A stretch of 64,000 nt of DNA from an uncultured delta proteobacterium (GTDB taxonomy: Bacteria > Desulfobacterota > WTBG01 > CAIYCZ01), in NCBI GenBank assembly GCA_963803975.1, contig CAWDOY010000053.1, forward strand, positions 1 to 64,000, read 5' to 3'. Every line of letters starts with the position of its first letter. The first letter of the stretch is position 1. A program made the translations under genes and the position numbers. Positions 8,015 through 60,660 of this stretch are shown piece after piece. The notes beneath the pieces were generated by a model, which worked only from the letters and a program-made list of their open reading frames with translations, searched no databases and was not told the DNA's origin.

Positions 8015-10749
8015 TCAGCGGGAATTCGCAAAACTTAAAAAGCTCTCATCCTTCATTTCACGCCTCAATTTATTGATCCGCGCTTTCAGCCGGGCAGGGG
8101 ATGCCTGCTCAAGGTCAAAGAGAAAACAGCTTGCTTCATTGAGCAGAGACGAGGGTATTGATACTGATTTTGTGCTGAGGGACGAGAGCACAACGGGCAT
8201 GGCATTTTGCAGGAGCCTTACAGCGCGCGCCCGCAGCTGCGGGTTTTTCTTCAGCACCTTCCGTACGTCGCCTTCCGCCGCGTAGTAAAGAGCAGTCAGC
8301 CGGTTTCCCGGCAATGATTTTTTCAAAACCGCGTCTCTGAAGGCCCGCAGCACCGGGAGGTGTTTCCTGTTGGCGCTGTTTTTAAGAAGCTCTGTTGCAG
8401 CGCAGCCGCCGTCATCACCGGGACCCGTAGAAAGAATTATATCACGGGTAACCATTTCACCGGCATTGACCGTAATCCCGAAGAGCGTAGCGCTATTGTA
8501 GCCATCAGCTGCAATCTCGATATCATGCACACCGGCAGGCATCATTAATGAATAAAAGCCCTCGCTGCTGGCGCAGGAGCTTCCGCTGGAGGAAGACACT
8601 GCCGCGTTGTCGACCGTGCTCCCGGTATCTTGAGCAGTAATAGTACCGGAGAGCAAACCAGTGCCGGACGATGAGCACTTGAACATGCCGCTGGCAGTGC
8701 CCGCAAGAATAGTGGAAGAGGGAAGGTTCTGTAGCAGACCTTTTTGCTTAAAGCCGTCGGCAGCGCGCGCGGCAGCAGGCCCGCTGTTTACATCAAATAG
8801 TATATAGTCTGACAGCCCGGCACAGGTCCAGTAATTACCGCCGTCCAGGCTTACATAAATTCCATTCCGGTATAACGCTGCATAAACGATATCCTGATTT
8901 GCGGCGTCGATTTTTACACTGGTAACGGCAAATGCCGGCTTCCCCTCTTTTCCTCTCGGCAAACCCCTGGTTTTCTCCTCCCAGGTTATACCAGCGTCAG
9001 TACTTTTATAGATTCCCGTATAGCTGTTATTGCTGCCACCGCAGCCGATATAGAGGAGGTCAGGATTGGATGAAGAGATGGCAATACTGTTAACAATGAG
9101 CTGTTGAGACGAGGCAGGGCTAAAAGTTTTACCGCCGTCACTGCTTTTGTAAATATTCCCGGGAGCAACAGGAGCAAAGAAACTACCGGTGCCCGCAAAA
9201 ACAGTCTGCGGGTTTGCCGGATGGATCTTTACCGTATTGACGGGCACCGTGGTTTCCCAGAGCATGCTATACGTTGTGCCGCCGTCAGTGCTTTTTATGA
9301 CCTCACCTCTTTTACCTGAAGAGAAGGCAACGCCCGCACAGATTATATCCGGATTAGACTTTGAAATTGCTATGGAGCTGACTTTATGCCCGTCACTTTT
9401 ATCTGAGACATCGGTATAGGTCCAGGTAGCGCCATTGTCCGTACTTTTTCCCAGCGCCCAGTCGAATCCGGCAAAGAGGGTATTCCGTGTGCCGGGTGAA
9501 AGCTGACTGCATAGGCAATCGACTCATTGACCCGGGTCCATTGCGTGCCGCCTGTTTGCCGGTAAACACCGGACAGCGTTCCTGCAACAAGGGTAGCTGG
9601 CGCTCAACGGAGAGACATCAATGGCGAACACCTGGTTTGCTCTGATTCCTTCATTCCTGGGCTCCCAGGTTTGGGCTCCATCCGAGCTTTTAAATACCCC
9701 CCGATTCAGATCGCCGCCAAAGAGAATATCAGGATTGTCAGCGGGAGCAGCAAGGCAGAGGAACTCTCCCGGCCGGTCATAATAATTCCAGGAATCACCG
9801 CTGTCAGTACTTTTTGCCACGCTGTTCACCAGCCCGGCATAAATGGGGGTATGGATGAGCCCGGAGCTATACACAGGGCGCGACAGCCCGTTGTGTCAGT
9901 CACCCAGGACCATCCGGTGGCGGTATTGGTGCCGTCCTGTTTGCGCAGCACGCCATACCCGTCAGCAGAAAAAACAAGATTGGGTTCCGAGGGGTGCACG
10001 AGTATTTCATCAAGGAATGAAAAAGGATATACCTTACCGTCAGACCACTGACCCTTATTCCACGACCACCACTGGTTTCCGCCATCCATGGTCATGAAGA
10101 TTCTGCCTTCCGGTGAGAGGCCGGCCTTGCGTGATGTCGCCCATATTTCATCCGGCACGGCGGGATTGACATCGATATCCCAGATATTGAACGGCTGGTA
10201 TTCAAGCGGAAACGTGTTCTCCATTTTAAACCAGGTGTCGCCGCCATCGGTTGTTTTATAGAGGACTCCCAGTTCGTCAGTCCCGTTCGGCCCGCCCGTT
10301 CCCACGTACACGGTATCGCCGGTCACATCATGAGGATCAACCTTGACCGTGTAGCAGAACCTTCCTTCTTCGTTGGCGAAATAGAACGTTTTCCAGGTGA
10401 ACCCGTAATCAGAACTCACATCTACATAATGATTGTCGGCGACCCAGATTTTCTGCGGGTTATTGGGATCTATGTCAATGTCATATACTTCATAATTTCT
10501 GAACCACCCTGCATTCTTCGCCCCGATCAGCCAGCTTTCGCCGCCGTCTTCAGAGGCAAAGAAGCCGTCGCCGTTCCAGCTCCCGGCATACAGGTAGGTG
10601 CTGTCATAAGGATCGATGGCAATGCGGTAGATCTGGCCGCCATAGAGGCCGAGGTCATTCCACAGGGGAATTCCCTGTGCGTTTATATCAGGCATCGCGC
10701 ACGCGCAGAGCAGCACTGCGAGGATGAGTATCCATCGTAACTTTGTCAT
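8015..10749 (-). CDS. Secreted BNR/Asp-box beta-propeller protein with carboxypeptidase-regulatory-like and CFI-box-CTERM-like domains (several frameshifts)
   Basis: Signal peptide MTKLRWILILAVLLC; many (S/T)xDGGx(T/S)W Asp boxes across ORF pieces; C-terminal GCAATELL..LRAFRDAVL..G..LYY. Confidence 0.75.
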
Positions 10750-10791
10750 ACCCTGTTCCTCTTTCAGCAAACGCCGGGTTTAAAGAGGTTC

Positions 10792-11646
10792 TTATTGGGA
10801 GCCATAGCTGTGCAGCCCCGAGAGGAGAAAATTCACGCCGAGGAACGTGAACAGCACGGCAGCAAACCCGATGATTGAGAGTATCGCCGTCTTCCTCCCG
10901 TGCCAGCCGCGGGTCAGGCGGGCGTGGATAAATGCTGCATACATGAGCCAGGTGATGAGCGACCAGGTTTCCTTCGGGTCCCAGCTCCAGTAGCTCCCCC
11001 AGGCATAGTTTGCCCACACCGCGCCGGTGATGATGCCGATGGTCAGCAGCAGAAAGCCGATGGCTATGGTTTTATAGATAATGTCATCAAGAGATTCCAT
11101 GGACGGAAAGAGCTCGGACATATCCGCACCTGCGGGGACTTTTTCTTTAGCCTTTTTATACTTGACGAGATAGGTGATGCTTGAGCCAAAAGAGATGGCA
11201 AATGCAGAGTAGGAAAGAAAACAGGTCATCACATGGTAGGTGAGCCAGTTGCTTTGCAGCGCCGGCATCAGCGGCTCGATTTCATCCTGAATGTTGGGAG
11301 AAAGCGAGGCGTAGGCCATGGCAATGGAGATCAGGGGAAAGATAAACACTCCGAGCGCCTTGCTCTTGTAGCGATATTCCACGATAAGGTAAATAATAAC
11401 CGTTGTCCAGGAAAGGGACATAAGTGATTCATACAGATTTGAAAGAGGAATGTGGCCGTGTCCCAGCTGATATGATTCGTACCAGCGCATGCCCAGGGCG
11501 ACGGTGTGGACGACAAGGCCAAAAATGGCGATACCGGTAATTACCTGGCCAAATTTCCTGTTTCTGAAGAACAGGTAGGTGAAATAGGATACCATGCAGA
11601 TGAGATAGGTAAACGTAACAATGCCTAACAGCTTTGAACTGATCAT
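10792..11646 (-). CDS. ccsA: System II cytochrome c biogenesis protein CcsA/ResC (CcsB in some nomenclature)
   Basis: WWD motif GAVWANYAWGSYWSWDPKETWSLITW; LQSNWLTYH; GLHSY. Confidence 0.95.
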   Translation of the reverse strand: MISSKLLGIVTFTYLICMVSYFTYLFFRNRKFGQVITGIAIFGLVVHTVALGMRWYESYQLGHGHIPLSNLYESLMSLSWTTVIIYLIVEYRYKSKALGVFIFPLISIAMAYASLSPNIQDEIEPLMPALQSNWLTYHVMTCFLSYSAFAISFGSSITYLVKYKKAKEKVPAGADMSELFPSMESLDDIIYKTIAIGFLLLTIGIITGAVWANYAWGSYWSWDPKETWSLITWLMYAAFIHARLTRGWHGRKTAILSIIGFAAVLFTFLGVNFLLSGLHSYGSQ

Positions 11647-11948
11647 GCTTTTCCCCTTTATGCTTTCAATTAGTATCTAAATGTAACCACAGAGGACACC
11701 CGTCCTCCGAAGCATTTCTGCCTGTCCTCCGCACAAAGCGTGCTTTGGAAGGCGGGCGGAGGGTGGACTGAGAAATTTTATATTTATCACCGTGTTATAA
11801 AATAGTCCTCAGGAAGTTACTCTGTGCCCTTAGCGTAATTATTATATAACAAAAAAGCGTTTTATGCTTGTGTATTGAGAGCACAGAGGGTTTCCCTGCG
11901 TTCTCAATGGGTGCATCCCTTCTCTGTTTTTCATAAAACTTTTATCAT

Positions 11949-13343
11949 TCATGATCTCAAGGTTTTAAACAGCGTTTCAAATTCCCTGCTGAACGCGATC
12001 TGGTTTTTATTGGTTGAGCCGGCAAGCACGGCTTTGCACTCGCCGTCCTTCTCCTCCACTCTCAGCCAGATGCGGCGGTGGGAGGTGAAAAATGCGACAT
12101 AGATGCCGCCAATGAGCAGGATGCAGCCGAGCCACACGACCAATACCCCGGGGTCATGGGTTACCTGCAGGCCCGTATAATACCGGGGTTGGATATTTAC
12201 CAGCTGCAGGTCAAGCGGCTGATCGCCCTTGCCGTGGAAATCAGGAAATTTTGCAAATATCCATTTATTGAACTCTTCTTTCCCGCCCTTGAGGACCGTT
12301 ACCCGGACGGCAGGATTATTGAACTCCTGAGACCGTGAAACGGGTTTGCCGTTATTATCCATCGCAAAATCAGAGAGGAATTCATCTGCGCGCACAACAT
12401 AGTTTGTTCCCGCAATTGGTGCGCTGCTGCCCACATCCAGGGTCAGGTCCTGCTGTTTGCCCGAGTCTTTTAGTTTTACGCTGAGGTTAATCTTGCCCCC
12501 GCCATCCGGAGCACCACCGTAGCTTGACTGGTAAAAATAGATACCGCGGTAAACCAGCGGGTCGTTTACCTCGATGGTCTTGGTTAAAACTTCCCGGTTG
12601 TTTTCGAGCACCGTAAGGGTGCTTTTGTAGTCTTTGGGCCTTTGGGAGCCTTCATAAAAGGTGACTTCAAACTTGTCACAGCGTATGGCAAAGTCGAGAT
12701 TCCTGGTCTCGTTCGAGTTTTTCAGCTGCATCACATGCGCAGTCTGCCCTTCGGGGATCTGCATGTAGCCCTGATAGCCCAGCGATCCTGACATGGACCC
12801 CAGGATAATGATTATCAGGCCCAGATGCGTCAGATAGAACCCGAAACGGGTGTATCGGCCGCTTTCAGAAAAAAGATGCCGCCCGCCCTGATTTTGTGTG
12901 AGAGCAGGTTGGTTAAGATACTGCGCGATGACTGTTGCATACTGCTTTTCCTGTTCAGCGGAAAATTTTTTCAGAGTGAATTTTCTGACATTTGTCAGTC
13001 CCTGCAGCAGCTTGTCATCAAGCACCGTGTCCCCATGAAATATCGCACGCCAGACCCGCGGCAGCCGGTTAAGAGAACAGGCTGCGAGGTTTATGGTAAA
13101 GAGGGTCATCAGGGAGATAAACCACCACGAAGCAAACAGGTTCAGGAAACCCAGCGTGGAAAAGAGCCGGTACGTTGACGGGCTGTAGAGCTGCAGGTAG
13201 TGCTGGGGTGATTCATTCTGGGGGATGAGCGTGCCAATGACGCACACGCTGGACAGAATAATAAGCAAAATTATGGTGAGCTTGATGGAAACGAAAAAAT
13301 CCCTTATCCTCTGTAGCATGCTCTTCTTCTTTTTTGCTGTCAT
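11949..13343 (-). CDS. resB: System II cytochrome c biogenesis protein ResB/Ccs1
   Basis: IGTLIPQ, SWWF, THLGL, VNDPL.YRG.YFYQSSY, YTGLQVTHDPG. Confidence 0.92.
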   Translation of the reverse strand: MTAKKKKSMLQRIRDFFVSIKLTIILLIILSSVCVIGTLIPQNESPQHYLQLYSPSTYRLFSTLGFLNLFASWWFISLMTLFTINLAACSLNRLPRVWRAIFHGDTVLDDKLLQGLTNVRKFTLKKFSAEQEKQYATVIAQYLNQPALTQNQGGRHLFSESGRYTRFGFYLTHLGLIIIILGSMSGSLGYQGYMQIPEGQTAHVMQLKNSNETRNLDFAIRCDKFEVTFYEGSQRPKDYKSTLTVLENNREVLTKTIEVNDPLVYRGIYFYQSSYGGAPDGGGKINLSVKLKDSGKQQDLTLDVGSSAPIAGTNYVVRADEFLSDFAMDNNGKPVSRSQEFNNPAVRVTVLKGGKEEFNKWIFAKFPDFHGKGDQPLDLQLVNIQPRYYTGLQVTHDPGVLVVWLGCILLIGGIYVAFFTSHRRIWLRVEEKDGECKAVLAGSTNKNQIAFSREFETLFKTLRS

Positions 13344-13544
13344 GAAAGCCGACTCCTTCTTTTTTATTTGGGGGGTATGTGCTGCCGTAGAGATGTATAA
13401 ATCAATTAATAACAGAACTTAGCCGGTTTGCGCAAGGGGTTAGTATTACTTTGAGAAAAATTTCAAAAAAACTTAAAAACCTGTTGACAACTGTATGTTT
13501 TTTTTGTTACTACATCACAAATTTTTATAAAATTTTATACGGGA

Positions 13545-14075
13545 ATGAAAACCATGAAAAAATGGGTTATATATTTAATTCTTGCTCTTCTTCTGTTTGG
13601 CCTGCCGTTTATAGCCTATACTGCAGAAGAGTACGCGGGGGCAACGAAATGCAAGCTGTGCCACATTAAAATATATAAATCATGGCAGCAGACCAAGCAT
13701 GGCACGGCATTTGATGTGCTGAGTCCGGGCAATAAAGCTGAAGAGAAAAAGAAAGCCGGTCTTGACCCGCAGAAAGATTATACCGCTGATGCCAAGTGCC
13801 TTGAATGCCACACCACCGGCAACAATGCGCAGTTCCCCGGGATTCAGTGTGAAGCGTGCCACGGGGCGGGCAAGGGGTATACCAGTATCAGGGTAATGAA
13901 CAAGAAGCTGTGGAAAGAAGATCCTAAAAAACAGGAGCAGCTGGCTTTAGCTGCGGGTCTTATCATTAAACCTGACGAAAACCTGTGCAAGAAATGTCAT
14001 AACGAAAAAAGTCCCACCTTCAAACCGTTTAATTTTGCTGAGCGCTACAAAGAGGTATCGCATAAAACTGAATAA
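13545..14075 (+). CDS. Periplasmic tetraheme cytochrome c (c554-like family)
   Basis: Signal peptide; CKLCH, CLECH, CEACH, CKKCH; YAGATKC..CH...Y.SW.QTKH pattern; divergent from resB. Confidence 0.88.
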   Translation: MKTMKKWVIYLILALLLFGLPFIAYTAEEYAGATKCKLCHIKIYKSWQQTKHGTAFDVLSPGNKAEEKKKAGLDPQKDYTADAKCLECHTTGNNAQFPGIQCEACHGAGKGYTSIRVMNKKLWKEDPKKQEQLALAAGLIIKPDENLCKKCHNEKSPTFKPFNFAERYKEVSHKTE

Positions 14076-14087
14076 CTGAGTTTACTG

Positions 14088-14705
14088 TTAGTCGTAGTTA
14101 TTATAATCTTCGGAGTCTTGCGCAGGAGCGGGACCTGGTGCAAGAGCTTTATACTCTTTTAATTTCTCCTGTAAGGAATCATCAATAGACTTCAGTTTAT
14201 CTTTAAACATGCGCACCATATATAATTTCAACAACATCACTTCATATTCTTTGCCCTTTTTATCCTCAGCGCTTAGTTGTGATTTGCTTTGAGCGTCTCC
14301 TGCTGCCGCAAGCAATTTATCTAATTCTTTTTGCCCCTGTTCCTTTTCCTGAGTTAATGCCCGAATCTGCTTCTCTATCGACGCTTTTTTTTCTATCTTT
14401 TCCGGGTCTTTCTCTTCCTCTTCTCTTTCAGCCCCTTCGCCAACGATCTCTTCTGCTGCACCATGTTCTACTGCCCTATCGCTATGCCCCGGCATGGTCG
14501 CAGGTGCTGGGATAGGTTTTTTTGCAATGCCCTGCATGTCCGGTGCCGGCATTGTATCCTGTTGTGGCGCAGCTTTTTTCTGCGAAGGTGCACCTTTTCC
14601 CGGTTGCGAACTCTTTGAAGATAAGGATTTTATAATTGACGCTGCTATTAATACAATACCAATGACGCACGCAACCAGGATTATTCTGTTTCGCTGATAT
14701 TTCAT
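14088..14705 (-). CDS. Hypothetical membrane-anchored coiled-coil protein
   Basis: N-terminal TM helix, Pro/Ala linker, K/E-rich helical C-terminus. Confidence 0.6.
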   Translation of the reverse strand: MKYQRNRIILVACVIGIVLIAASIIKSLSSKSSQPGKGAPSQKKAAPQQDTMPAPDMQGIAKKPIPAPATMPGHSDRAVEHGAAEEIVGEGAEREEEEKDPEKIEKKASIEKQIRALTQEKEQGQKELDKLLAAAGDAQSKSQLSAEDKKGKEYEVMLLKLYMVRMFKDKLKSIDDSLQEKLKEYKALAPGPAPAQDSEDYNNYD

Positions 14706-14788
14706 GGTGCTTGAGATTGAATGTTGGGTAGAGAGGATGTGATATTTGATAGCAGATTTATAAATGTATGGCAAGCCTTAGAATAAAC

Positions 14789-14890
14789 CAGGACTTTCCC
14801 TAAAATTACGGCATAGAAAACCAGCAAACGGCATGACCGCAGTGAAAGGGTGAAGAGGTAAGATAAGAGGTAAAGAGGTTAAGAGGGTTA
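14789..14890 (+). repeat. Partial second copy (left end) of the 1031-1249 MITE
   Basis: 33/34 nt identical to 1031-1064, followed by degenerate AAGAGGT units; no right TIR visible. Confidence 0.75.
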
Positions 14891-14910
14891 CAAAACATTA
14901 TATGAAAATC

Positions 14911-14949
14911 AGCAGCGCTCCCCGTCTTGTCCGGACAGGGAGCGCTGCT
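14911..14949 (-). terminator. Stem-loop downstream of the cohesin-cytochrome genes
   Basis: AGCAGCGCTCCCcGTC...GACaGGGAGCGCTGCT inverted repeat. Confidence 0.65.
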
Positions 14950-15014
14950 TGCTGCTGTTTTTATTCTATATTAGGTACTGTGCCAGATACGCTGTAAGTA
15001 TGAGCGCAGTCTTC

Positions 15015-17927
15015 TTACCGTATCGCAAGCGTACCCGTGCATATCTGGGTTCCGGTTAACACGGTTACTATCTTATTACCCTTACCAATGAGGTACTGAG
15101 GCGGCACCATTGCCAGCACCTCGATTGCAGTAGGTGTGATGAGAGTAGTTCTAATGTAACGGAAGCCCTGGATACTTATTGCGCTGGTCTCATCAAATGC
15201 ACCGCCTTCTGTCTGAATTTTGATCCGTGCGAACAGCGGGATAAGAAATCCGGATCTGACGGATTCCGGATCAACCGTCAGCGAGCAGGACGGCGGCGGA
15301 TTCGGTATCGTTGTAGTTGTGGTTATACCGCCTGAACAGCTTGAGTGACAGGTAAGGCATGAACCGCCGTGCTGCACTATTAGATTACATTTGCCCGGAG
15401 AGGTCAGGGGGTGGCATTTTACGCAGTTCCCGGGGCTCACATTGCCTGCCTGCGGAGTGCCGTCATGACATTGGGAGCAGTTGCCGTGTCCTGAGCGTGC
15501 ATGCAGGTCGCTCACTGTATGGCATCCCGTGCAGTCATCAATATGTCCATACGCTGGCGGGGCAGTAGTGGTGGAGGTCGACTGATTTGGTATAGTGGTC
15601 GTTGTAACACCGCCTGAACAGTTTGTGTGACAGGTGAGGCATGAGCTGCCGTGATTAGTTATTAAATTACACTTACCCGCAGCACCCAGAGGATGACACA
15701 CGATACACTTGTCAGCCTCTACGTTGCCTTTTGCAGGAGTTCCTGCATGGCACGATGCACAGGTTTGGTGCCCTGGATGGTCATGTAAATCACTCGAAAC
15801 ATGACAGGTGAGACAGATACTGAAATGATCGCTGGGAGGCAGCACCGTGGTGGTAGAAGATCCTGCGCCGGTTGTGGTGGTTGTTGATCCAATGGTTGTG
15901 GTGGTACTCGGTGCGCACATAGCGGGAGTGTGGCAGGTGTTGCATGAGCTGCCGTGGAACGCTACTAAATTACACGTACCGGGTTTGCCAGTGGGGTGGC
16001 AGCCTGCGCACTTGCCAACATCCGCATTACCAGCTGTCGCTGGAGTTCCCGTATGACAGTAGGTGCAATTGTTGTGTGCTGGCTTAGCATGTATATCACT
16101 CACTTCATGACAGGTGAGACACAGGGCATTGTGTCCGCTTGGAGCTGAAGCAGAAGTGGTGGTAGAAGATCCTGAACCGGTTGTGGTGGTTGTTGATCCA
16201 ATGGTTGTGGTGGTACTCGGTGCGCACATAGCGGGAGTGTGGCAGGTGATGCATGTGCTGCCGTGGAAAGCCACCAGGTTACACTTGCCGGGGTTGCCCA
16301 CCGGGTGGCATGAAACACACTTGCCATCATCAACATTACCTGCCTGCGGCGGCGTGCCGGTATGGCAATAGGTGCAATTATTGTGCGCTGTTTGCGCATG
16401 TAAATCACTCACTTCATGACAGGTGAGACATTTGCTGATGTGGCCGGTTGTGCTTATAGCAGTGCTGGTGGTAGAAGACCCTGGACCGGCTGTGGTAGTG
16501 GTACTCGGTGCGCACATAGCGGGAGTGTGGCAGGTGATGCATGTGCTGCCGTGGAAAGCCACCAAGTTACACTTGCCGGGGTTGCCCACCGGGTGGCATG
16601 AAACACACTTGCCATCATCAACATTACCTGCCTGCGGCGGCGTGCCGGTATGGCAATAGGTGCAATTATTGTGCGCTGTTTGTGCATGTAAATCATTCAC
16701 GTAATGGCAGGTGAGACACTGGTCGGTGTGTCCGCTTGGGGCGGAAGCAGTAGTGGTAGTAGACCCACCTGGAATGCTGGTTGTTGTTCCTCCGCCTGAG
16801 CTGGTTGTGGTGCTGCCGCCACCGATGCTGGTTGTGGTACTGCCCCCGCCGGTACTGGTTGTAGTATTTGAGATAGTAGAAGTGGTAGTGGTAATCGGCG
16901 CTCCGCCGGAACAGCTCTTGTGGCAATCAAGACAGCTTTGGGTTACAAGCTGGGCATGCACGTCCACGATCTTACAGTCGCCGGTGCCGCTGAGCGGGTG
17001 GCATGCAGAGCACTTGTCAGCCGTCACATTTTTACCCGGGGTGCCGTTTGGATGACAGCTGCTGCAGGTATTGTGTCCGGACCGGCTGTGTATGCGCAGG
17101 CTGTTTGTGGAACTGAAATCCGTGGGATGGCATACCACGCAGCTGCTCATATGATTATTTGTGGTGTTGCTATCACAGTCAACATGGCAGGTGAGACAAT
17201 TTGCTCCATGAAGAACAGGTGTGGGTAGGTTTATTAGGTTACATACTCCCGGGCTGCTGCTGGGATGGCAGACGACGCACTTGTCCGGCTTTACATTGCC
17301 TGGCCCGGGGGAGCCTGCGTGGCAAGCGCTGCAGTTGCTTTGATGGGTGGTAACACCGTGTAATGAGCTTGCGGGATGACAGGTAATGCAGGTTTCAATG
17401 TGTGGAACAGGTTCCTGGATCACAGATGAGGTAGTGGTGCTTAATACGCCCACGGTTATGGTGCCATCATTACCTGTGACAGTAATAACACCCCCGGTGG
17501 CGGTCGACGCACTGGGGTCGTTGCTCAGCTGGTAGCTGGTAGCTGGAGCGCTGCAGTTTATCGCAAAGGTGACATTAGCGACAACTCCGTTGCCGATGTT
17601 GTTCACATTTGCTGAGGAGAAAATACCCACCCGATACAGTCCTGGTGATACAATGTTAGAGGCTGCTGATTTCCCTGCTGCTGTTCCTGCCGGCCCTACT
17701 GCGACACTTACCGGGGTTAGAAATTCGCTGTTGTACCCGATATCCGTAGCAACACCAGCAACCGGGGCTATGCCGTCGTTGGTCAGGGTTACGGAGATGA
17801 TAACCTGTGCGCACTGGTTACCTGAAGCAGTGCCAAGGTCAACAGTAGGTGTTGCCTGTGCAGCACCTGCCAGAAAAAGGGACAAAAGCGCTGCAAACAT
17901 TGTTATCCTGCCATGAGCTGTTTTCAT
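15015..17927 (-). CDS. Secreted cohesin-domain multiheme cytochrome c, 7 tetraheme modules (28 CxxCH) with Thr-rich linkers
   Basis: Signal peptide; cohesin-like domain (VATDIGYN..GPAGTAAGK..PGLYRVGI..GVVANVTF); 28 CxxCH counted in 7 repeats; beta-rich C-terminal domain. Confidence 0.88.
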   Translation of the reverse strand: MKTAHGRITMFAALLSLFLAGAAQATPTVDLGTASGNQCAQVIISVTLTNDGIAPVAGVATDIGYNSEFLTPVSVAVGPAGTAAGKSAASNIVSPGLYRVGIFSSANVNNIGNGVVANVTFAINCSAPATSYQLSNDPSASTATGGVITVTGNDGTITVGVLSTTTSSVIQEPVPHIETCITCHPASSLHGVTTHQSNCSACHAGSPGPGNVKPDKCVVCHPSSSPGVCNLINLPTPVLHGANCLTCHVDCDSNTTNNHMSSCVVCHPTDFSSTNSLRIHSRSGHNTCSSCHPNGTPGKNVTADKCSACHPLSGTGDCKIVDVHAQLVTQSCLDCHKSCSGGAPITTTTSTISNTTTSTGGGSTTTSIGGGSTTTSSGGGTTTSIPGGSTTTTASAPSGHTDQCLTCHYVNDLHAQTAHNNCTYCHTGTPPQAGNVDDGKCVSCHPVGNPGKCNLVAFHGSTCITCHTPAMCAPSTTTTAGPGSSTTSTAISTTGHISKCLTCHEVSDLHAQTAHNNCTYCHTGTPPQAGNVDDGKCVSCHPVGNPGKCNLVAFHGSTCITCHTPAMCAPSTTTTIGSTTTTTGSGSSTTTSASAPSGHNALCLTCHEVSDIHAKPAHNNCTYCHTGTPATAGNADVGKCAGCHPTGKPGTCNLVAFHGSSCNTCHTPAMCAPSTTTTIGSTTTTTGAGSSTTTVLPPSDHFSICLTCHVSSDLHDHPGHQTCASCHAGTPAKGNVEADKCIVCHPLGAAGKCNLITNHGSSCLTCHTNCSGGVTTTTIPNQSTSTTTAPPAYGHIDDCTGCHTVSDLHARSGHGNCSQCHDGTPQAGNVSPGNCVKCHPLTSPGKCNLIVQHGGSCLTCHSSCSGGITTTTTIPNPPPSCSLTVDPESVRSGFLIPLFARIKIQTEGGAFDETSAISIQGFRYIRTTLITPTAIEVLAMVPPQYLIGKGNKIVTVLTGTQICTGTLAIR

Positions 17928-17994
17928 ATCACTTGGTTCTCCATGAAAATTTACTGCTATATATAAATTATAATGCCTGTAACGTAAAAAGATT

Positions 17995-19215
17995 TTATTG
18001 TGTCTTTTGATCCAGCGCCCAGACAGCCATGTTCACTGTCAGCCCGTTTTCTTTAGTATCTGTGGTGTCGCCGGTGGTTACCATCACATCGTAGTGACCC
18101 TGGACATTGGGTTTGACTGCCACCAGGGCAATCATGGTGTCGCCCGCGGCCAGTGTTGCCATGGGACGGATATCTCCTGACGGGTTAAAGCTCAATCGAG
18201 AGGACATTTTCAACCCACCCGTATCGCTGCGAATGACCAGAAGATGGAGTCGCTGCCGCCAGCGGGAACTGGTTATGGATAGTGGTGTAATGCTGGAAAT
18301 CCCGCCGGCAGGGGGTGCAGCAACGCTTACCAGTGCCCTGGCCCCTATACCATTGGCATAATCAACAGTCAGTATCGTATCAGTTACCTCTGCTCCGGCA
18401 GTATTTTCACCTGCCACGTAATTGCCGTTTTCATCAATAGTGCTGCCGATGGAACTTTCCACTGACCAGTGCAGCTGTGGCGGGGCACATGCAGCATCGT
18501 TTAGTTGCGCGGCAAAATTTACTGCCTGCTTAGCCATAACGTTGACAGCAGCGGGATTGATAATAAGCGAACAGAAACCCGGAGCAGCAGCAGTGGTAGT
18601 AGTGGTCAAGGCTGCGGTTGTAGTTGCAGATGATATGGTCGTAGTTGTTGTTGCCGGCACGGTCGTGGTTGATACATTGGCTGGTATAGTCGTTGAGTTT
18701 GGACTGTCATCAATTTCTGAGGTAGTGGTGCTGGAGGTGACTTCTATAATGCCAGCGCCACCGCCCGTTGCGACAGGAGACCCCTGAGGCGTTGAGCAGC
18801 TCGGATTATTACCCAGTTGATAGTTTCCTGCGGGCGCACCGCTGTTAACCCTGAAAATGACATTGGCAACCAGGCCGTCTGGTATGGGAGTCAAATTGGA
18901 GGTTGAGAGAACACCGACGCGATATAATCCCGGTTCCACGATATTCTTGACAACCTCTTTGCCTGCTGCTGAGCCTGCCGGCCCTATGGTGGCATCTATC
19001 GGAGTTAGGTGCGCACTGTCATAGGTAATGTCAGTGCTGGCGCCTGCAACCACGGTTCCCGTTTCATTAGTCAGAAATATTGGGATCGTAACCTCCTCGC
19101 CGGGACGCACACTGTCAGAGCCCATATCAAGATCAGGAGCTGCCCAGGCAGCGCCGCATAAGGAGATTGTCAGGAGAAGAGCTATAACTGATGTACTGCC
19201 AAAAACTGATTTCAC
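17995..19215 (-). CDS. Secreted cohesin-domain protein with Thr-rich linker and Ig-like domains, no hemes
   Basis: Signal peptide; PGEEVTIPIFL..STDITYD..GPAGSAAGK..PGLYRVGV..DGLVANVIFRV; poly-Thr linker. Confidence 0.8.
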   Translation of the reverse strand: MKSVFGSTSVIALLLTISLCGAAWAAPDLDMGSDSVRPGEEVTIPIFLTNETGTVVAGASTDITYDSAHLTPIDATIGPAGSAAGKEVVKNIVEPGLYRVGVLSTSNLTPIPDGLVANVIFRVNSGAPAGNYQLGNNPSCSTPQGSPVATGGGAGIIEVTSSTTTSEIDDSPNSTTIPANVSTTTVPATTTTTISSATTTAALTTTTTAAAPGFCSLIINPAAVNVMAKQAVNFAAQLNDAACAPPQLHWSVESSIGSTIDENGNYVAGENTAGAEVTDTILTVDYANGIGARALVSVAAPPAGGISSITPLSITSSRWRQRLHLLVIRSDTGGLKMSSRLSFNPSGDIRPMATLAAGDTMIALVAVKPNVQGHYDVMVTTGDTTDTKENGLTVNMAVWALDQKTQ

Positions 19216-19272
19216 GACGATGACCTCAAAAATACTTTAAAAACAATCTTCTAAAATTAATTGAACCTGGGG

Positions 19273-19311
19273 AAAAAAGGAGGTGGTAGTGGTTGCCCCC
19301 TACCACCTCCT
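19273..19311 (-). terminator. Intrinsic terminator-like hairpin inside the cohesin gene cluster
   Basis: Minus strand AGGAGGTGGTAG-loop-CTACCACCTCCT followed by a T run. Confidence 0.75.
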
Positions 19312-19345
19312 GCAATGTTAACACACGATCAGGTGTTCGTCCAGA

Positions 19346-22157
19346 CTACCTCCATGCCGGAGCAGCTCCGCCACTCAGATCAATTGTTGAGTCAACTAAC
19401 ACTTGCGCAAGATACAGCGCGTTGTGAATGTAACCACACGGCTCCTTCTTGCTGAACTGGTAGTTGTATGCTGCCTTCAACAGTTTCGCATCAAATGTCG
19501 TGTAGCTGGCTTCACCAGTATCATGAACATTATTGTTGTTGGCATCAACAAACCAGTACGGGTACGCAGCCCCATCATACACGATGAATTTTCCCAGCGT
19601 GCCCGCAGAGTACGCGCGAATCTGCGTATACAGTGCATCTTCCAGCCCTGCGATTTCACTCTGTATCGACTCGGTCACATTGCCGTCACTGTCAAAGTCA
19701 GTGTTGCCGAATCCTGTGGCCGGGCGAATGTTAGCGAATTCAAAGGTGCCGGTCTGCGACACATCACCAGCGTGACATACGCAGTTGTTGGGGTTAGGCT
19801 TGGTCACCCGGTGCGACGCGTACGACGCATTCAGGCCGTCACTGCCCATATGACACTGCACGCAGTTATTAAACTTGCCGCCGTGAGCAGTGAACGGGTT
19901 CTGACCGGCATAGGTCTTGCCCGCGTACTCGTAGCCGCCCTGCACCTGCGTGCCAAACAGCGATGCTGCTGCTGCGTAATAGTGCACATTGGTGAAGGAG
20001 TACGGGCCGGCGGGGCCTGGTGCTACCTTGGTATCTATGCTCTTCTTGGACTCGCGGCCCTGGTGACAGAGCAGACACAGGTTGCTGTCGTCAGTTGCCC
20101 CGGCACCACCCATATTGGCTTTTAGCCCTGAGGGGAAGGTTACATCTTTCACTGCCAGGCGCGGTGCATTCGTGTCAGTTACACTGCTGTGGCAGTTGGC
20201 GCACAGCATGCCGTTAGCCGGTTCTTCCTGGATGTTGACATTGTTGGTCAGGAAGAACGGGATGCCGGCGCCTGCATGACACTTAGCGCATGAACCCGGA
20301 GGTCCCGGCAGTGCCGGAGCAGTTGCTACATCCCAGTGTCTCCAGGCCTCGGATGAACCGTCAAAGTGTCCTTCATCCACCCGGTTGCAGCCGGCAAGGC
20401 TCACTTCCAATGAGGGTACCAGGGTAGAGAGCTTAATGTTGAGATCCTCTATGGAGTCATACAGCAGCTCGATGATATACTTTGCCATTGTGTGCATAGG
20501 AACCAGGATCCTTGATCGATAACTGGTAGTTGTAGGTTGCCTTGAGCAGCCGGGCTGTATAGGCATTGTACCGGGTGACTTCAGCTGGATCAGCTACACC
20601 ATTGCCATTATCATCAATAAACCAGTAGGGGTTTGCGGCCGGATTGTACACAATGCCTTTACCTGACACGTTTGTAGCATATGCCTGGATAGCCTGGTAC
20701 AGCTTCACTCTGAGGCCGTCTGCTTCATAGTAGAGACCTTCAGTTACGTTGCCGTCACCGTCATAGTCTTCCAGGGAGCCCTTCATGCGGATATTCTTCA
20801 GGGCTGCCTTGTCTGTTGCGCCGGTATGACAGGTAACGCACTTGTCATACTTGAGCTCAAGAGAATGCGCGTCATGACATTTTACGCACGTATCATAGCC
20901 TTCCACGTGGGCAAACTTGGCATCATAGACCTTGCCCGCATACTGGTAGCCGCCCTTTGCCTCGTTGCCGTACAGGGTTGCTGCTGCGGGAAAGTAGTGG
21001 ACGTTCCTGAAAGATGAACCACTATCCACTGCATCAGGGTCTCCTGCCAGTAGCGGTCTGCCGGCAATGTATGCATTCACGCTGTCTGTTGATTGCCGAC
21101 CCTGGTGGCATACCATGCAGCGCGCTTCCGGACCCAGACCCGTGAGCGTAAGCTTGGGAATCGGGGGCACTGCAGTGGCATCACCGGTGGACTCGAGCAC
21201 CACGCTGGTCAGCTCACTTGCCTTCTGGTTATGACATGCCTCGCAGGAGACGACCGTGCCGATCGGTGCCGGGTTATCTACCACACCGGCTGCGGTGCCG
21301 TCTGCGCCCAGGTAGTCAAGATAGCCCGGGGTGCTGTGGCATTTGGCACAGCCGACAGGAACCGCTGGGGTACAGGTTGTGGCTGGGGGTACAGGAGTAC
21401 ATTCATTCCAGTCATTGAAGGCCTCAGCAGTAGTGTCTGCATGGCCGGATTCCTTCCATAGCTCTTCCTGGGGTATCACGTCAACCGTGGGGCAGGCACA
21501 TTCCTTGGTCTCCAGGAAGCAGTTGATGGCCTTGATCACATCATCAATCGAAACCTTGTTGTCTGCGGTTGGATCACCTAAGGGATCGACCGGGTCTAAC
21601 CCCAGAAACATTCTCACTTCCATCAGTATTTCGTTAAGGGCGGTTACGCCGTCCAGGTTAAAGTCAGCGGTCTTGGCAGTAAAGAAACTGCCTGACACGC
21701 AGGCGATCCCCAACGCGTTTCCTGCAGGGTCAGATGCGCTGCACAGGTTGGTCAGGTCTACGCCGCCTACCGGGTTCTTCTTCAGCGTGAAATTTACATA
21801 GGCCACTACGCCATCGCCGATGGGGGTGGTGTTGCCTTCGGTAAATACGCCAACACGCACTACGCCGGGTGACAGCAGGTTGAATGAAACAGTTTTACCC
21901 ACTGCTGAGCCGGCCGGCCCGATGGTTGCGCCGGTGAAATCTAAATAACTGTCATTAAACGTGATGTCCGTGCTCACACCGGCAATATTGGGTGCTGCAC
22001 CGGCAGTGTTGACCAGAGTAATCGGCATGACCGCTGCTGCGCCAAAAGAAGCGCACGGCAGCGCGATATCTGCTAACTTTAATTCTGCTGCAGTTGCCGC
22101 ACTGCATAAAGGCAGGATGAAAAGACATACAAGAAATAGGGTTTTAAAATACTTCAT
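19346..22157 (-). CDS. Secreted cohesin + dockerin-like + multiheme cytochrome c (two pentaheme repeats; 9 CxxCH + 1 CxCH); 1-nt frameshift at about 20482
   Basis: Joining ORFs restores DPGSYAHNGKYIIELLYDS; cohesin N-terminus; duplicated Ca-loop DFNLDG/DPTADNKVSIDD; CHQGRxS and HY.AAA.L(Y/F)G motifs repeated. Confidence 0.85.
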
Positions 22158-22485
22158 TCGTCAACCTCCTAAAAAAATATTTAAATTTAAATTGTTGGTT
22201 GGTTCCCCTTGTTAGCTTTTCTCCCCTTGAACAAGGGGGAAAATGTGTTAGTTATATATATATACTTTCAAAGCATGAAAGGTTATTAAGGGTTATTTAT
22301 ACTTGCCGATTAATCTAAACCGCTACATAAACGGTAGATTAATTTTCATGTATCACGTATTTTTATATCCGCTGTTTCATTACCCTTAGCTGCTGAGAGC
22401 CTTTTGTCTGATGGAACATGGTCGTTTCAGATTAAAAAATCGATTACTGTACAAAATCATACATCAACAGTATAATTATTCAAAC

Positions 22486-22568
22486 AGTACTAACTACCTG
22501 ATTTTTAAAATAATTATGCGAATAACTACGTATGAAAGGAAAAAACATAGGTGGAAACTACTGATATG
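22486..22568. promoter_or_regulatory. Three phased AACTAC boxes (32-bp period) in the divergent intergenic region
   Basis: AACTAC starts at 22492, 22524 and 22556. Confidence 0.45.
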
Positions 22569-22728
22569 AAAAGATAGGGCAGGTTGAATATGACAGCGAC
22601 GCACTTCCAGGTTGGCAATGGATAAACAGAAACATTGACTTTATTTATAAATAATTATAAAATAGAACTTCATTTTTCATTACCTGCCTTTATATAAAAA
22701 AATAAATGTAAAATTAAATAGGTATGTT

Positions 22729-23705
22729 ATGTCTCGCAATCGAATTATTTTTTTTGTTGTGTTTATCATCGCGATATTTACGGGTGTCTATTTTTTAATA
22801 GACCTTTTCGGGCAGCATGCTCTGAACAGACTGTATTCACCCACCAAGCGGATAAGCCTTGAAAAAGGTTATAAGGAAAATATACAAAAAACAATATTCG
22901 TTAACGACCCCCATGAACCTGAGATCCGTATTGCAATTGCACCCATCATGTCTCCTGAAAAATCCCTTCCGATATATAAGGATCTCATCAATTACATGGG
23001 CAAAGTTCTTAACAGGCAGCCGGTTCTGATGCAGAAATCGAGTTATTCTGAAGTAAATGATTTATTGCATTATGATGGCTGCGATGTTGGCTTTGTGTGT
23101 ACCTATCCCTATGTGCTCGGCGAACGTGATTACGGCCTGAAACTGCTGGTTATCCCGCGCATTCGACGGGAAAATAACCATGCACGGTCATTCATCATAG
23201 TACCTGCAGACAGTAAAGCCCAGTCGCTGCTGGATCTGCGGGGAAAGCGTTTTGCTTCCTGCGATATTATTTCGCAAACCGGCTGGATATATCCGGCGAT
23301 CTGGCTTCTGAAGCATGGGGAAAATCCAAAGGAGTTCTTTGGAGAACATATTATCTGCGGAAGCCATGACCGGGCTGTCGGGGCGGTGGCAGACACAGTT
23401 TGCTGATGGGGCTGCTGTTCAAAACCTGGTGTATGAAAAAATGGTTGCCGATGACCCATCTCTGGCCGATAAAGTCCGCATTATCATGAAATCTGAAGAA
23501 TACGGTATAGCCCCCAATAGTTGCAAACCCGCGCATGGATCCGGTGTTGCTGGAGACACTCCGCAAAGCGTTGCTCTCCATGCACGAATCAGCTGAAGGG
23601 AGGGCAATCCTTAACCGGATGGGCATCGAACGCTATGAGGTCCCTGAAAGCAGCCTGTATGACAACTCGCGGGGTGATGCTGAGCTATGGAATCCCAGGT
23701 CGTAA
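22729..23705 (+). CDS. PhnD/AioX-like periplasmic substrate-binding protein (frameshifted)
   Basis: IRIAIAPIMSP, GFVCTYPYV, DLRGKRFA..D..SQTGW, GSHDRAV; no ABC permease/ATPase adjacent. Confidence 0.8.
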
Positions 23706-25168
23706 TTTTCTTAAATAGTATTTTAAATCGGGCGCGCCGGGCACTGAATCAGCTTTTTAACAGCTTTGTTTCCGTGCCGATTTTTATAAAAATTCTCGGA
23801 GTGGGGATGTTCGTTGTGGTACTGTTTGGGGCGATCGTGCTCTATCGTACGCGCATCAGCGTGGCACGGACGTTCTACGGCATGCTTGAAAATGAAACAA
23901 AGACCCTGGCGCTTATGGTTGCAGCCAATTTAGAGCGGCCACTGGCAGTTAGAGATTATTTAAGCGCACAGTTAGTTTTAAATGATGCCAAACAGATTTA
24001 CCCGGACATTCTCTACGGGATCGTGGAAGACAAAGCAAACCGGATTTTCGCCCATACCTTTGAAGGCACTGTGCCGCCTGACCTGGTGGGACTTCTCCCT
24101 CCGGTGACGGGTCTTAATTCCAGTAATAAACCTCATCTGGAAATTTTCAACAATGCAGAGGGGTTTATTATGGAGTCATCAGTACCAATTATCAAGGGGG
24201 AACCGGTGCGTCTCAGGATAGGGACGAGTGACCGGCTGATTAGACAGCAGCTTTACGATCTGACCCGGCTGTTGCTTGTCTCTACGATATTCTGCGCGAT
24301 CCTCGGGTGTGGTCTGGCGCTTATATTAACCTACCTCATAACCCGTCCGGTTAAAAATCTTTTAGCAGCTACAAACAGGATCAGCCAGGGCGATTTCACT
24401 TCAAGATCACATGTCTTCTGGAATGATGAGATCGGCAAGTTTGCTGTTGCATTTAATCGCATGGCGGACAATCTGCAGCAATACCGCAGGGAGGTTGAAG
24501 AAAAGGAAGCTGTCCGCCAGGCCCTGCTTGAAAAGGTCATTTTTATCCAGGAAGAAGAGCGCAGAAGGATAGCGCAGGACCTGCACGACCAGCTGGGGCA
24601 GTCCCTGTCGGTGCATGCTTCTGGATATCCGGCAGCCGGACAGCGGCACACAGTGCTTCTGTGAAAAACACCCCATGATCGAGAAACGGCTAGTCCGAAC
24701 TGATCGATGAAGTCCGCCAGCTGGCCTGGGGCATGCACCCGTCTATTCTTGACGATTACGGACTTGACAAGGCTCTTGAACGCTATGTCAACAACTATTT
24801 CTAAAGCAACCAGAATTGCTATTGATTATCAGTGCCTGTGCCCCCGGCAACTGCCGCGCCTTCCCATCAGAACAGAAGTTGCCCTGTACCGTATTGCGCA
24901 GGAGGCAATTACCAACATCGTGCGTCATGCCAACACCAAACAGGCAAGCGTGGTTTTTATGCGCAATGAACATGAAACAATTCTGCTGGTGGAAGATGGG
25001 GGAAAGGGGTTTGACACAGCAGCTCATTCTGACCGGGAGTTTACCCATATGGGACTGGTCGGCATGAGCGAACGAACGTCAATGCTGAGAGGCGAATTTA
25101 CTGTTGAATCAGTGCCCGGCATGGGCACCACGATACGGGTAAAAATTCCCCAGGAGATGCTTTCATGA
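23687..25168 (+). CDS. HAMP-domain sensor histidine kinase, HisKA_3 type (frameshifted)
   Basis: 2 TM + HAMP (DEIGKFAVAFNRM); EERRRIAQDLHDQLGQSL; YRIAQEAITNIVRHA, EDGGKGF, GLVGM.ER. Confidence 0.88.
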
Positions 25169-25824
25169 CAATCAGAATAATGCTTGCAGATGATCATGCG
25201 GTTTTTCGTAGCGGGCTGCGCGCCCTGCTCGAAAAAGAGGCAGAGTTTCATGTCGTCGCTGAAGCAGGGGATGGCCATGAAACGGTTAAAAAGGCATGCA
25301 GTGAAGCTATTGATGTGCTCGTTCTTGATATCAATATGCCGGGAATGACGGGGCCCATGATTGCGGAGGAAGTCCTGCAAAAATGTCCCCGGCTGGCGAT
25401 CGTAATTTTGACGATGCATGACGATGAATATTACCTGCAGGAACTTTTTAAAATAGGCGTGCGGGGCTTTGTGCTCAAGAAATCCACCGGTACGGACCTG
25501 CTGCAGGCAATCCGTGCCGTAGCCCGCGGTGAGCAGTATGTTGACTCCTCCCTGACCAAATGTGTGCTTTCGCGTTTTATAGGAACCGCGCACGGCAAAC
25601 AGTCCGCCCCCCAGACCAGAAAAGACCTCCTTACCCCGCGTGAACAGAAGATCTGCCAGCTGCTGGCTTACGGGAACACCAACAGCGAAATTGCCGAAAA
25701 GCTTTTCATTTCCGAACGGACGGTTGAAACCCATCGCTCCAATATTTATGCCAAGCTCGGGCTGAAAAATCGGGTAGAGCTGGTGCGCTTTGCCATTGAC
25801 AACGGCCTGATGCTTCTGACCTGA
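25165..25824 (+). CDS. NarL/LuxR-family response regulator
   Basis: LADDH, DINMPG receiver; LTPRE...IAEKLFISERTVETHRSNIYAKL HTH. Confidence 0.95.
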   Translation: MTIRIMLADDHAVFRSGLRALLEKEAEFHVVAEAGDGHETVKKACSEAIDVLVLDINMPGMTGPMIAEEVLQKCPRLAIVILTMHDDEYYLQELFKIGVRGFVLKKSTGTDLLQAIRAVARGEQYVDSSLTKCVLSRFIGTAHGKQSAPQTRKDLLTPREQKICQLLAYGNTNSEIAEKLFISERTVETHRSNIYAKLGLKNRVELVRFAIDNGLMLLT

Positions 25825-59915: not shown

Positions 59916-60660
59916 ATGAAAAAATATCTTTACTCCTTGCTGGCGCTCCTTTTTTTATTGTCCGGCGGCATGGCTGCGAAGGCCCTGGCCTATACGGTTG
60001 TCACGCCGCAGCAGGCACAGCAGATGATCGAAACCAATAGCGCGCTGACCGTTGTTGATGTCAGAGAAGTTAATGAATACTGCGGCGCGAACGGCCACAT
60101 CGCCGGGGCGCTCAATTATCCCCTGGATTTCAGAGGTGCTGGAGCAAGGATTATGCAGGAACTGCCTGCGGACGCTGAAATCCTTGTGGTCTGCCAGAGC
60201 GGACATCGCAGCGTCACTGGCTGCGGAGTTTCTTGATTCCAAGAGTTTTCTTCATGTGTATTCCATGGAGGGAGGCATGTCTGCCTGGCAGTGGGATACC
60301 GTAACCTGTGTTGACAGGGACGGAGATGGCATCAATGATGACCGGGACAATTGCCCGACCGTGTCCAATCCTGACCAGAAGGACACTGACCAGGACGGTG
60401 TCGGGGATGCCTGCGAGGAAAAGAACCTGTGCCCCGCTGAGGCAGTCTATGGGGAAAATTCAGAGGAGGTTCTGCTGCTCAGGGATTTCCGTGACAGCGT
60501 GCTGCACCAAACAGCAGAAGGCAGGAAGGCAATTACCCTGTATTACGCCTTAAGCCCGGTGCTGGTGAACATGATGACGCAGGATGATGGATTCAAAGGC
60601 CGGCTGCGCGCGGCAATTGACAGGGTTTTGCCGGAGCTTAAAGAAAAAATGCGCAGATAG
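59916..60660 (+). CDS. Secreted rhodanese + thrombospondin type 3 repeat + CFI-box-CTERM-like protein (frameshifted)
   Basis: [81 protein letters not shown]. Confidence 0.8.

Follow-up and report, generated by a model that had tools for sequence, protein, structure and literature searches.

The subject of this study is a cluster of three genes, here called A, B and C, on a 64,000-nucleotide stretch of DNA from an uncultured delta proteobacterium (GTDB lineage Bacteria; Desulfobacterota; WTBG01; CAIYCZ01; assembly GCA_963803975.1, contig CAWDOY010000053.1, positions 1 to 64,000 of the forward strand; hereafter the window). The cluster represents a known plug-and-socket cassette, the cohesin and dockerin modules, which two uncharacterised cytochrome families have taken up within a single narrow lineage. 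It is neither a cellulosome by the tests that define one nor a known nanowire, and it suggests a clip-on mounting of electron-carrying proteins outside the cytoplasm. On the minus strand, A (22157-19346), B (19215-17995) and C (17927-15015) follow one another and are closed by a strong terminator-like hairpin (14911..14949, minus strand; 16 pairs; -33.7 kcal/mol, z-score -6.3). The initial annotation had described three consecutive, co-oriented, exported proteins, each beginning with a cohesin that bears a common sequence motif, and this description was borne out, the motif included; the leaders of A, B and C are hydrophobic and end in a site of the A-x-A type, as judged by eye for cleavable-type signal peptides.

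Cohesins, a dockerin-like segment and two heme modules

All three N-terminal domains exceeded the curated cut-off of the Pfam Cohesin family (PF00963, 24.1 bits): the domain of A (21678..22088, minus strand) scored 24.9 bits, that of B (18730-19137, minus strand) 49.1 bits and that of C (17448-17852, minus strand) 41.8 bits. They are 41-48% identical to one another and keep D40, K64, R77 and G79, the most conserved polar positions in the numbering of our own profile. The first 199 residues of mature A, which comprise the cohesin and the dockerin-like segment behind it (together, the dyad), were modelled from an alignment of 56 relatives, 54 of which match PF00963 at E<=0.01; the model had a predicted local distance difference test score (pLDDT) of 92.3 and a predicted template-modelling score (pTM) of 0.79, and its first 140 residues superpose on solved cohesins. 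Foldseek placed the modelled cohesin closest to 2xdh, a non-cellulosomal cohesin of Archaeoglobus fulgidus (E 2e-11), VIA-align placed it closest to 6kgc_A (Z 16.6, root-mean-square deviation 2.4 Å over 134 residues), and the 20 best rows of a fold search over all representatives were cohesins without exception (Z 11.7-16.6). A, B and C begin with true cohesins, and the expected fold of the N-terminal domain was recovered in the predicted structure of A.

The same fold is found in clostridial cellulosome proteins (6kgc, 5nrk, 3ul4 and 4dh2; Z 14-17), whereas the best Foldseek match belongs to the non-cellulosomal pair ORF2375/ORF2376 of A. fulgidus, in which cohesin and dockerin are encoded by neighbouring open reading frames and strong binding has been reported (PMC9705933). 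The A cohesin differs from that pair in being only 15-18% identical, and the available portion of the same report mentions no heme cargo. A separate, purely structural class of dyad cohesins, comparable to the X module, was considered and rejected, as dyad cohesins share their conserved positions with free cohesins. On the cohesin tree, the labels dyad and free change 25 times against a mean of 63 after shuffling, a difference that says little because kin share labels.

Directly behind the cohesin of A lies a dockerin-like segment of 55 residues (21510-21674, minus strand). It contains two calcium-loop motifs, and a helix comes after each of them (dyad residues 151-161 and 181-191 in the model). 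The family loop consensus, D-x-[ND]-x-[DN]-G-x-V-[ST]-I-x-[ED], occurs twice per segment; its first Asp is present in 56/56 rows for loop one and in 51/56 for loop two, and the second loop of A has Thr at position 3. Dockerins are told apart from EF-hand pairs by a layout of loop, helix, short linker, loop and helix, and both A and its family display the duplicated loop and helix with no preceding E helix. Because this layout stands directly behind a cohesin, the segment is likely a dockerin and not an EF-hand pair, an assignment less firm than that of the cohesins. At E<=0.01, Dockerin_1 was found in 16 of the 56 dyad proteins (best 2.8e-11) and EF-hand_1 in 21; at E<=1, six of seven isolated segments matched Dockerin_1, and six matched EF-hand. 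The duplicated, dockerin-like calcium loop that had been noted on A holds up at the level of this family. The dyad profile reached solved dockerins at E 0.02-0.7 only, and the fold-search matches to the dyad model were cohesins throughout, spanning model residues 1-140. A complex prediction for the B cohesin with the A segment scored 0.05 (mark 0.32) and was uninformative in either direction.

Gene A (19346..22157, minus strand) is a single gene of about 925 residues that the assembly divides into two frames, and it encodes, in order, a signal peptide, the cohesin, the dockerin-like segment and two pentaheme units. One frame (20457-22157) contains five CxxCH motifs and the other (19346-20566) four CxxCH and one CxCH, so the earlier count of about ten hemes holds for the joined gene (nine CxxCH and one CxCH) but for neither frame alone. 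The break is evidently an error of this assembly, because homologues of 923 residues span both frames intact (P0002 and P0004, 89% and 60% identical over the N-terminal 199 residues) and in two further public DNA runs, X1 and X2, the contigs have one base fewer at position 20484; four runs were compared in detail, of which three cover the stretch. The same intact homologues and one-base difference rule out A as a pseudogene. A second copy of A, 90-97% identical and with several frame breaks, lies at C52:1-3200 (L047), where one tetraheme bead (see below) and a Thr linker are fused ahead of the cohesin; downstream of it are a TetR-like gene and then a gene resembling those for aldehyde:ferredoxin oxidoreductase (by eye).

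Each unit of A has five heme motifs followed by long C-terminal helices. The best solved matches of the pentaheme profile are NrfA nitrite reductases, a weak likeness (E 6e-5) from which the A unit departs in being duplicated and in having CxxCH at the catalytic CxxCK position in all nine units aligned; each unit has five other His that are fully or almost fully conserved, and no NCBIfam model reached its cut-off. Single-sequence queries with A and C against solved structures gave uninformative matches, and a full-length model of P0002 (six-row alignment, pLDDT 38, without hemes) was left out of all fold claims.

Gene C (15015..17927, minus strand) encodes a signal peptide, the cohesin, seven tetraheme repeats and a C-terminal domain, CT, while gene B (17995..19215, minus strand) encodes a signal peptide, the cohesin, a Thr-rich linker, an immunoglobulin-like (Ig-like) middle part recognised by eye, and CT. 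Motif counts agreed with the initial annotation, giving 28 CxxCH in C and none in B. The repeat of C, hereafter the bead, has 75-86 residues and four CxxCH motifs. Of its additional His, three are invariant or almost so and a fourth occurs in most repeats; together with one additional Cys that never varies, this pattern suggests four bis-histidine hemes and one disulfide. The linkers between beads measure, in order, 2, 55, 20, 27, 26 and 19 residues; those of 19-55 residues are rich in Thr, Ser and Gly, and beads 1 and 2 stand only 2 residues apart. Against solved structures, the bead profile found weak, generic best matches (3ov0, E 1.6e-4; 6r2q, E 1.5e-3), and the ESM Atlas pointed to generic c7/c3 clusters (scores near 0.9, a lead only). 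The dodecaheme 3ov0, which we take to be Geobacter GSU1996, and MtrA are likewise modular arrays of small heme repeats. In contrast to these, the bead carries four hemes and an invariant extra Cys, and the beads are set on long Thr/Ser linkers instead of being packed end to end. Neither the sequences of A and C nor the bead and pentaheme profiles matched a chain named as OmcS, OmcE, OmcZ or archaeal ECN at E<=1; filament structures of all four kinds were presumably present in the structure library searched.

The CT domain shared by B and C is a 95-residue Ig-like domain that closes the reading frame at all eight places in the genome where its profile matches at E<0.01. It resembles IPT/TIG domains in the ESM Atlas (scores near 0.9, a lead only) and would serve as a sorting or anchoring tag. 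CT also forms the end of large exported proteins of Ig-like repeats (C3:294316-302089, C10:2489-4405 and C29:5432-6601).

Distribution of the cassette and history of the cytochromes

The cellulosome-like character once proposed for this assembly, taken as a scaffoldin with several sockets and many dockerin-bearing subunits, did not survive a census of the genome (98% complete, 57 contigs). Our own profile and Pfam agree on four cohesins, on four separate proteins, and our own profile found three dockerin-like segments (in A, in its C52 paralogue and at C35:52273), none over the Pfam cut-off. The clostridial cellulosome differs in having a multi-cohesin scaffoldin and SLH domains, neither of which was found in this genome (SLH, PF00395); the cargo here consists of heme proteins, and the Pfam matches of A, B and C include no carbohydrate-binding module or glycoside hydrolase, for which no genome-wide search was made. 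Because four cohesins lie on four proteins, with three dockerin-like segments and no SLH, the predicted proteins could form pairs and chains, not a multi-socket cellulosome. In cellulosomes, the single-cohesin proteins OlpA, OlpC and SdbA are anchoring proteins, and proteins with both a cohesin and a dockerin are adaptors; B resembles a one-socket anchoring protein and A an adaptor.

A dyad profile built from three sequences found 1,944 cluster representatives at E<=0.001. Among the best 150 relatives, 103 have a full dockerin-like segment, which begins at most 10 residues behind the cohesin in 91 of them, and five, all close kin of A or C from this lineage, have at least two CxxCH motifs. By this distribution, the dyad is evidently a general-purpose cassette that is carried mostly by heme-free proteins, and named carriers of the family include a matrixin protease of Desulfobacteraceae, a Geomonas protein and a giant surface protein of Geobacteraceae. 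Across a sample of the phylum, at least 3 of 401 genomes match the three-sequence profile (with at most eight candidates scored per genome), and a scan of genome contigs with the C alignment yielded two loci, both with cohesin-only relatives. In G240, a genome of the same phylum, an A-type dockerin occurs as a free tag on four dissimilar proteins beside two separate single-cohesin genes, one of which ends in an SLH-like repeat (by eye). This heme-free module system (L045, L048, L051, L055 and L056) offers a good model for binding in trans. In the present genome, an exported FN3-like protein (C35:52273-52899, L054) has a dockerin-like end 49% identical to that of A and no cohesin; this end abuts two insertion-element-like genes, and the protein may be cut short. 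Dockerins with no cohesin in cis, that is, the FN3-like protein and the four in G240, need a socket on another protein. Four further proteins (P0041, P0098, P0113 and P0126) each have three or four cohesins of the A/B/C family and no heme motifs, and scaffoldin-like members of the family evidently exist outside this genome.

The cytochrome modules have relatives with no such cassette. Of 40 other genomes of the class, 8 contain a match to the A-type heme body, and in none of them was the cohesin part matched with it. In all seven of these eight that were examined, the N-terminus of the protein is a hydrophobic stretch that closes with Cys, which by eye is of the lipoprotein type. Matches to the C profile occur in 18 of 42 genomes of the class (its own included), mostly through the bead, and its cohesin part was matched only in this genome and in one heme-free protein of G022. 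In 17 loci the bead occurs singly or in 3 or 6 copies with other C-terminal tags, two of which score over the cut-off for CFI-box-CTERM; the C-terminal domains of the bead proteins of G013, G014 and G020 fall below detection with the CT profile (E<=0.01), their likeness to CT being judged by eye. In G028, the gene after resB-ccsA encodes a three-bead protein. G013 and G014, which belong to another family of the same order, have genes for a binding protein, a kinase and a regulator on one strand and an A-type decaheme gene and a bead gene on the other, as in the window, and the stretches examined in both contain no cohesin or dockerin match and no B gene.

From these comparisons, the cytochrome modules are evidently older than their cohesins. 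In the lineage of the window, the lipoprotein-type leader of A would have given way to a cleaved leader and the dyad, the bead protein would have gained a cohesin and more beads, and the heme-free B was apparently added in this lineage. Because the cohesin-free order of G013 and G014 comes with a lipoprotein-type signal on the decaheme protein, it looks as if the dyad replaced the lipid anchor of A. The trait is narrow, since the one other genome of the genus and the two of the family, which are 89-98% complete, yielded no cohesin match. B precedes C in four metagenome loci (L015, L016, L019 and L020), and the number of beads per C-type protein ranges from 3 in L020 through 4 in L021 and 6 in L016 to 7 here. 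The bead and A-body genes are adjacent in four loci of three genomes, and bead, cohesin, dockerin and A body occur in one chain in P0056 and in the C52 paralogue (in the latter in broken frames); this adjacency and these fusions argue that bead and A body are functionally paired.

Anaerobic methanotrophic (ANME) archaea and their sulfate-reducing partners also combine non-cellulosomal cohesins and dockerins with a wealth of multiheme proteins. Their modules are described on ATP-binding cassette (ABC) binding proteins, S-layer proteins and scaffoldin-like proteins (PMC9012536), whereas here they are fused to the cytochromes themselves. In the accessible part of S4 Data of that study, none of at least 20 places with 'cytochrom' and at least 14 with 'heme' shows a multiheme cytochrome domain (PMC9012536), and neither 'cytochrome' nor 'heme' occurs in the adhesin table of a second study, in 12 of whose 17 supplements the search was made (PMC10553843). 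A review speculates that ANME cohesin and dockerin domains serve cell contact or the adhesion of multiheme cytochromes (PMC5244752). No title or abstract describing a multiheme cytochrome fused to a cohesin or dockerin was found in a search whose coverage excludes most subscription journals.

Proposed assembly and its alternatives

In the reading that we favour, A clips through its dockerin onto the single-cohesin proteins B and C, which CT would hold in place, and the clip takes over from the lost lipid anchor; this proposal stands about evenly poised between right and wrong. Hemes would be attached by ResB and CcsA in the periplasm, and the folded proteins would leave through the type II secretion system. 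B and C would be held at the surface by CT with the cohesin at the far end, B as a heme-free spacer and C as a string of seven tetraheme beads beneath its cohesin. A, having lost its lipid anchor, would bind these cohesins in a calcium-dependent manner, and its own cohesin could take a further A or another dockerin-tagged protein, giving pairs and short chains as opposed to a multi-socket cellulosome. An NrfA-like decaheme redox head would thereby come to lie beside a large, probably bis-histidine heme reservoir, from which electrons would pass to an outside acceptor or partner. An extracellular location is a prediction of this scheme, and A-B-C might also conduct.

Several observations weigh against it. 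The A cohesin groups apart from the B and C cohesins on the tree. The A segment itself matches neither Pfam Dockerin_1 nor any other Pfam family; for relatives of the segment, EF-hand models match at least as well as dockerin models do, and the 60 rows shown for a dockerin-only profile against solved structures were all EF-hand proteins. Fewer than two heme motifs are present in 145 of the best 150 dyad relatives, and with the dyad so generic (91/103; 145/150), its presence says little about electron transfer. A was not seen beside B in any examined locus outside this genome; the co-conservation observed was that of B and C. Equal lengths of the longest contig (242,726 for P0001, P0212 and P0037; 12,328 for P0056 and P0011) nevertheless hint that proteins of the A, B and C types lie on common contigs elsewhere. 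Between A and B lies a terminator-like hairpin with a U run (19278..19311, minus strand; -26.2 kcal/mol, z-score -4.5; equal stability in 0/200 shuffles) that separates A from B-C. A, B and C showed neither an SLH domain nor a lipid or membrane anchor. Finally, electron tunnelling reaches about 1.4 nm, and since five of the six C linkers have 19-55 residues, which when extended exceed this range, C is no ready-made wire; conduction along it would need collisions or bundling.

Doubtful, if a serious contender, is the explanation that the modules are general adhesion or matrix tags, each binding a surface layer, a polysaccharide or an envelope protein with no specific A-B-C complex; the cluster would then be a group of exported cytochromes that had acquired a popular Ig-like module. 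The dyad moves as a unit among proteases, SLH proteins, giant adhesin-like proteins and other carriers, the bead swaps C-terminal tags (CFI-box-CTERM and CT-like) where there is no cohesin, the genome has three free cohesins against only three dockerin-like segments, and the presence of a cohesin is by itself not diagnostic of function according to the ANME study (PMC9012536). Yet A-type dockerins with no cohesin in cis exist, and B, in which only cohesin, spacer and CT are recognisable, nevertheless stands beside C in four loci.

Rather unlikely, in our estimate, is a more elaborate arrangement in which C forms a flexible conductive stalk bearing a calcium-switched, length-tunable cable of A on A, and B is an insulating spacer. 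CT would hold C at the cell surface, and electrons would pass from bead to bead by collision or bundling; the socket of C would capture a decaheme A, whose cohesin would capture the next A. The stalk would vary from 3 to 7 beads between strains, and B would set the number of wired heads. If true, this would add a third route, next to polymerising cytochromes and porin-cytochrome conduits, by which a wire outside the cell is built.

A wholly periplasmic redox assembly is improbable. A would then be an NrfA-like reductase induced by the neighbouring small-molecule sensor, C an electron store or shuttle feeding it, and cohesin-dockerin contacts, standing in for the lost lipid, would hold A close to the membrane. 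The pentaheme matches to NrfA, weak as they are, would suit such a role, as would the linked sensor, whose periplasmic solute-binding protein agrees with a soluble substrate; apart from Sec signals, A, B and C have nothing recognisable for export, and linkers of such flexibility are better suited to a capacitor than to a wire. On the other hand, CxxCH in place of CxxCK and the five further conserved His fit electron transfer more than catalysis, the long Thr/Ser linkers and Ig-like tails are common to large adhesin-like proteins of this genome, and a type II secretin (GspD, over its cut-off) is encoded in it. Partner recognition, in which the cohesins and the dockerin would dock the cytochromes to another species for interspecies electron transfer, is very improbable, with no known partner and a candidate plug encoded in cis in the same cluster, even though the lack of dsrA over cut-off in the 98% complete genome and its 283 heme motifs in 40 reading frames with at least three each (frameshifts split some genes) fit a non-sulfate-reducing, possibly syntrophic organism, and highly expressed cohesin and dockerin genes with a proposed partner-sensing role are described for methane-oxidising consortia (PMC10553843), cohesins that are likened to the present ones by kind only.

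The clip proposal joins two questions, how soluble multiheme cytochromes are retained at the surface of diderm bacteria and what non-cellulosomal cohesins and dockerins do. Relatives with the same cytochromes, a lipid-type signal and no cohesin provide natural controls, and the domains are small enough to be expressed alone. If the clip exists, it would represent a natural modular redox assembly with a stand-alone tetraheme bead of 75 residues and an orthogonal plug-socket pair for bioelectronics; otherwise, bead and pentaheme unit would still stand as two uncharacterised families of cytochromes, distributed across a single uncultured class.

Neighbouring genes and genome content

Flanking ResB/CcsA maturation genes, a tetraheme cytochrome and a sensor module had been named in the initial annotation, and each was identified by family match. 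Both ResB (11949..13343, minus strand; PF05140) and CcsA/CcsB, the heme-attachment protein (10792..11646, minus strand; PF01578; TIGR03144, 308.8 vs 187.6 bits), the two components of system II cytochrome c maturation, are present; because a second resB-ccsA pair lies on contig C47, the local pair need not be dedicated to the cluster. The tetraheme cytochrome (13545..14075, plus strand) is c554-like, with four CxxCH (PF13435, 61.5 bits). A 228-residue gene product (14088..14774, minus strand) matched no Pfam family; it has an N-terminal hydrophobic stretch and a charged, helical-looking C-terminal half, its gene sits behind C in three related loci (L016, L020 and L021), and it is a candidate membrane-bound accessory protein or chaperone. 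This gene, the hairpin between A and B and the CT domain common to B and C were absent from the initial annotation.

The sensor module begins with a phosphonate-family periplasmic binding protein in two frames (22729..23596, plus strand; PF12974 on both pieces), whose gene is undivided in G013 and G014 and has one base fewer at position 23392 in runs X2 and X19. A histidine kinase, likewise in two frames (23687..25168, plus strand; HAMP and HisKA_3 by Pfam), is a single frame of 490-494 residues, 60-64% identical, in G013 and G014, and the NarL-type response regulator (25165..25824, plus strand; PF00072 and PF00196) is 82-89% identical there over the matched part. The same order in G013 and G014 indicates that the sensor module belongs with A; the claimed gene associations are upheld for the sensor and weakened for the maturation pair, which is one of two sets.

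Genes in the window are often split by single-base breaks, as fits an error-prone long-read assembly, and split genes of this genome are not pseudogenes by default and need checking first. Among the runs listed, 20 from 15 studies contain parts of the stretch, and nearly all of these bear a sediment, freshwater or wetland label; the named relatives of the modules and the system II maturation genes suggest an anaerobe of deltaproteobacterial type. Contigs of an RNA run, X19, cover 28 of 30 bins, although contigs cannot show transcription, as DNA may have been present. Elsewhere in the genome, an MtrA-like decaheme gene followed by an MtrB/PioB-like porin gene (C20:38147-40778) forms a candidate outer-membrane conduit.

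Directly downstream of ccsA, the window encodes an exported, BNR-repeat, beta-propeller-like protein in several broken frames (8015-10770), which ends in a carboxypeptidase-regulatory-like domain and a CFI-box-like tail. CFI-box-CTERM has 31 matches in the genome, 13 of them over cut-off, and occurs in the window at 8213-8380 and 60436-60627. It and CT appear to be alternative C-terminal ends of exported proteins of the class, including ones with the same heme bead, and might represent a possible undescribed sorting system; no publication using the term 'CFI-box' was found. A large multiheme cluster at C19:13189-33718 contains frames with 10, 14 and 16 hemes, cytochrome b-like membrane genes and a further A-type cytochrome of two units, which lacks a cohesin and begins with an N-terminal domain of another kind. 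Two similar repeat-built cytochromes (C40:29324-31779 and C41:727-3007), with 22 heme motifs in one frame, have lipoprotein-type leaders similar to the leaders on the A-type proteins in G013 and G014.

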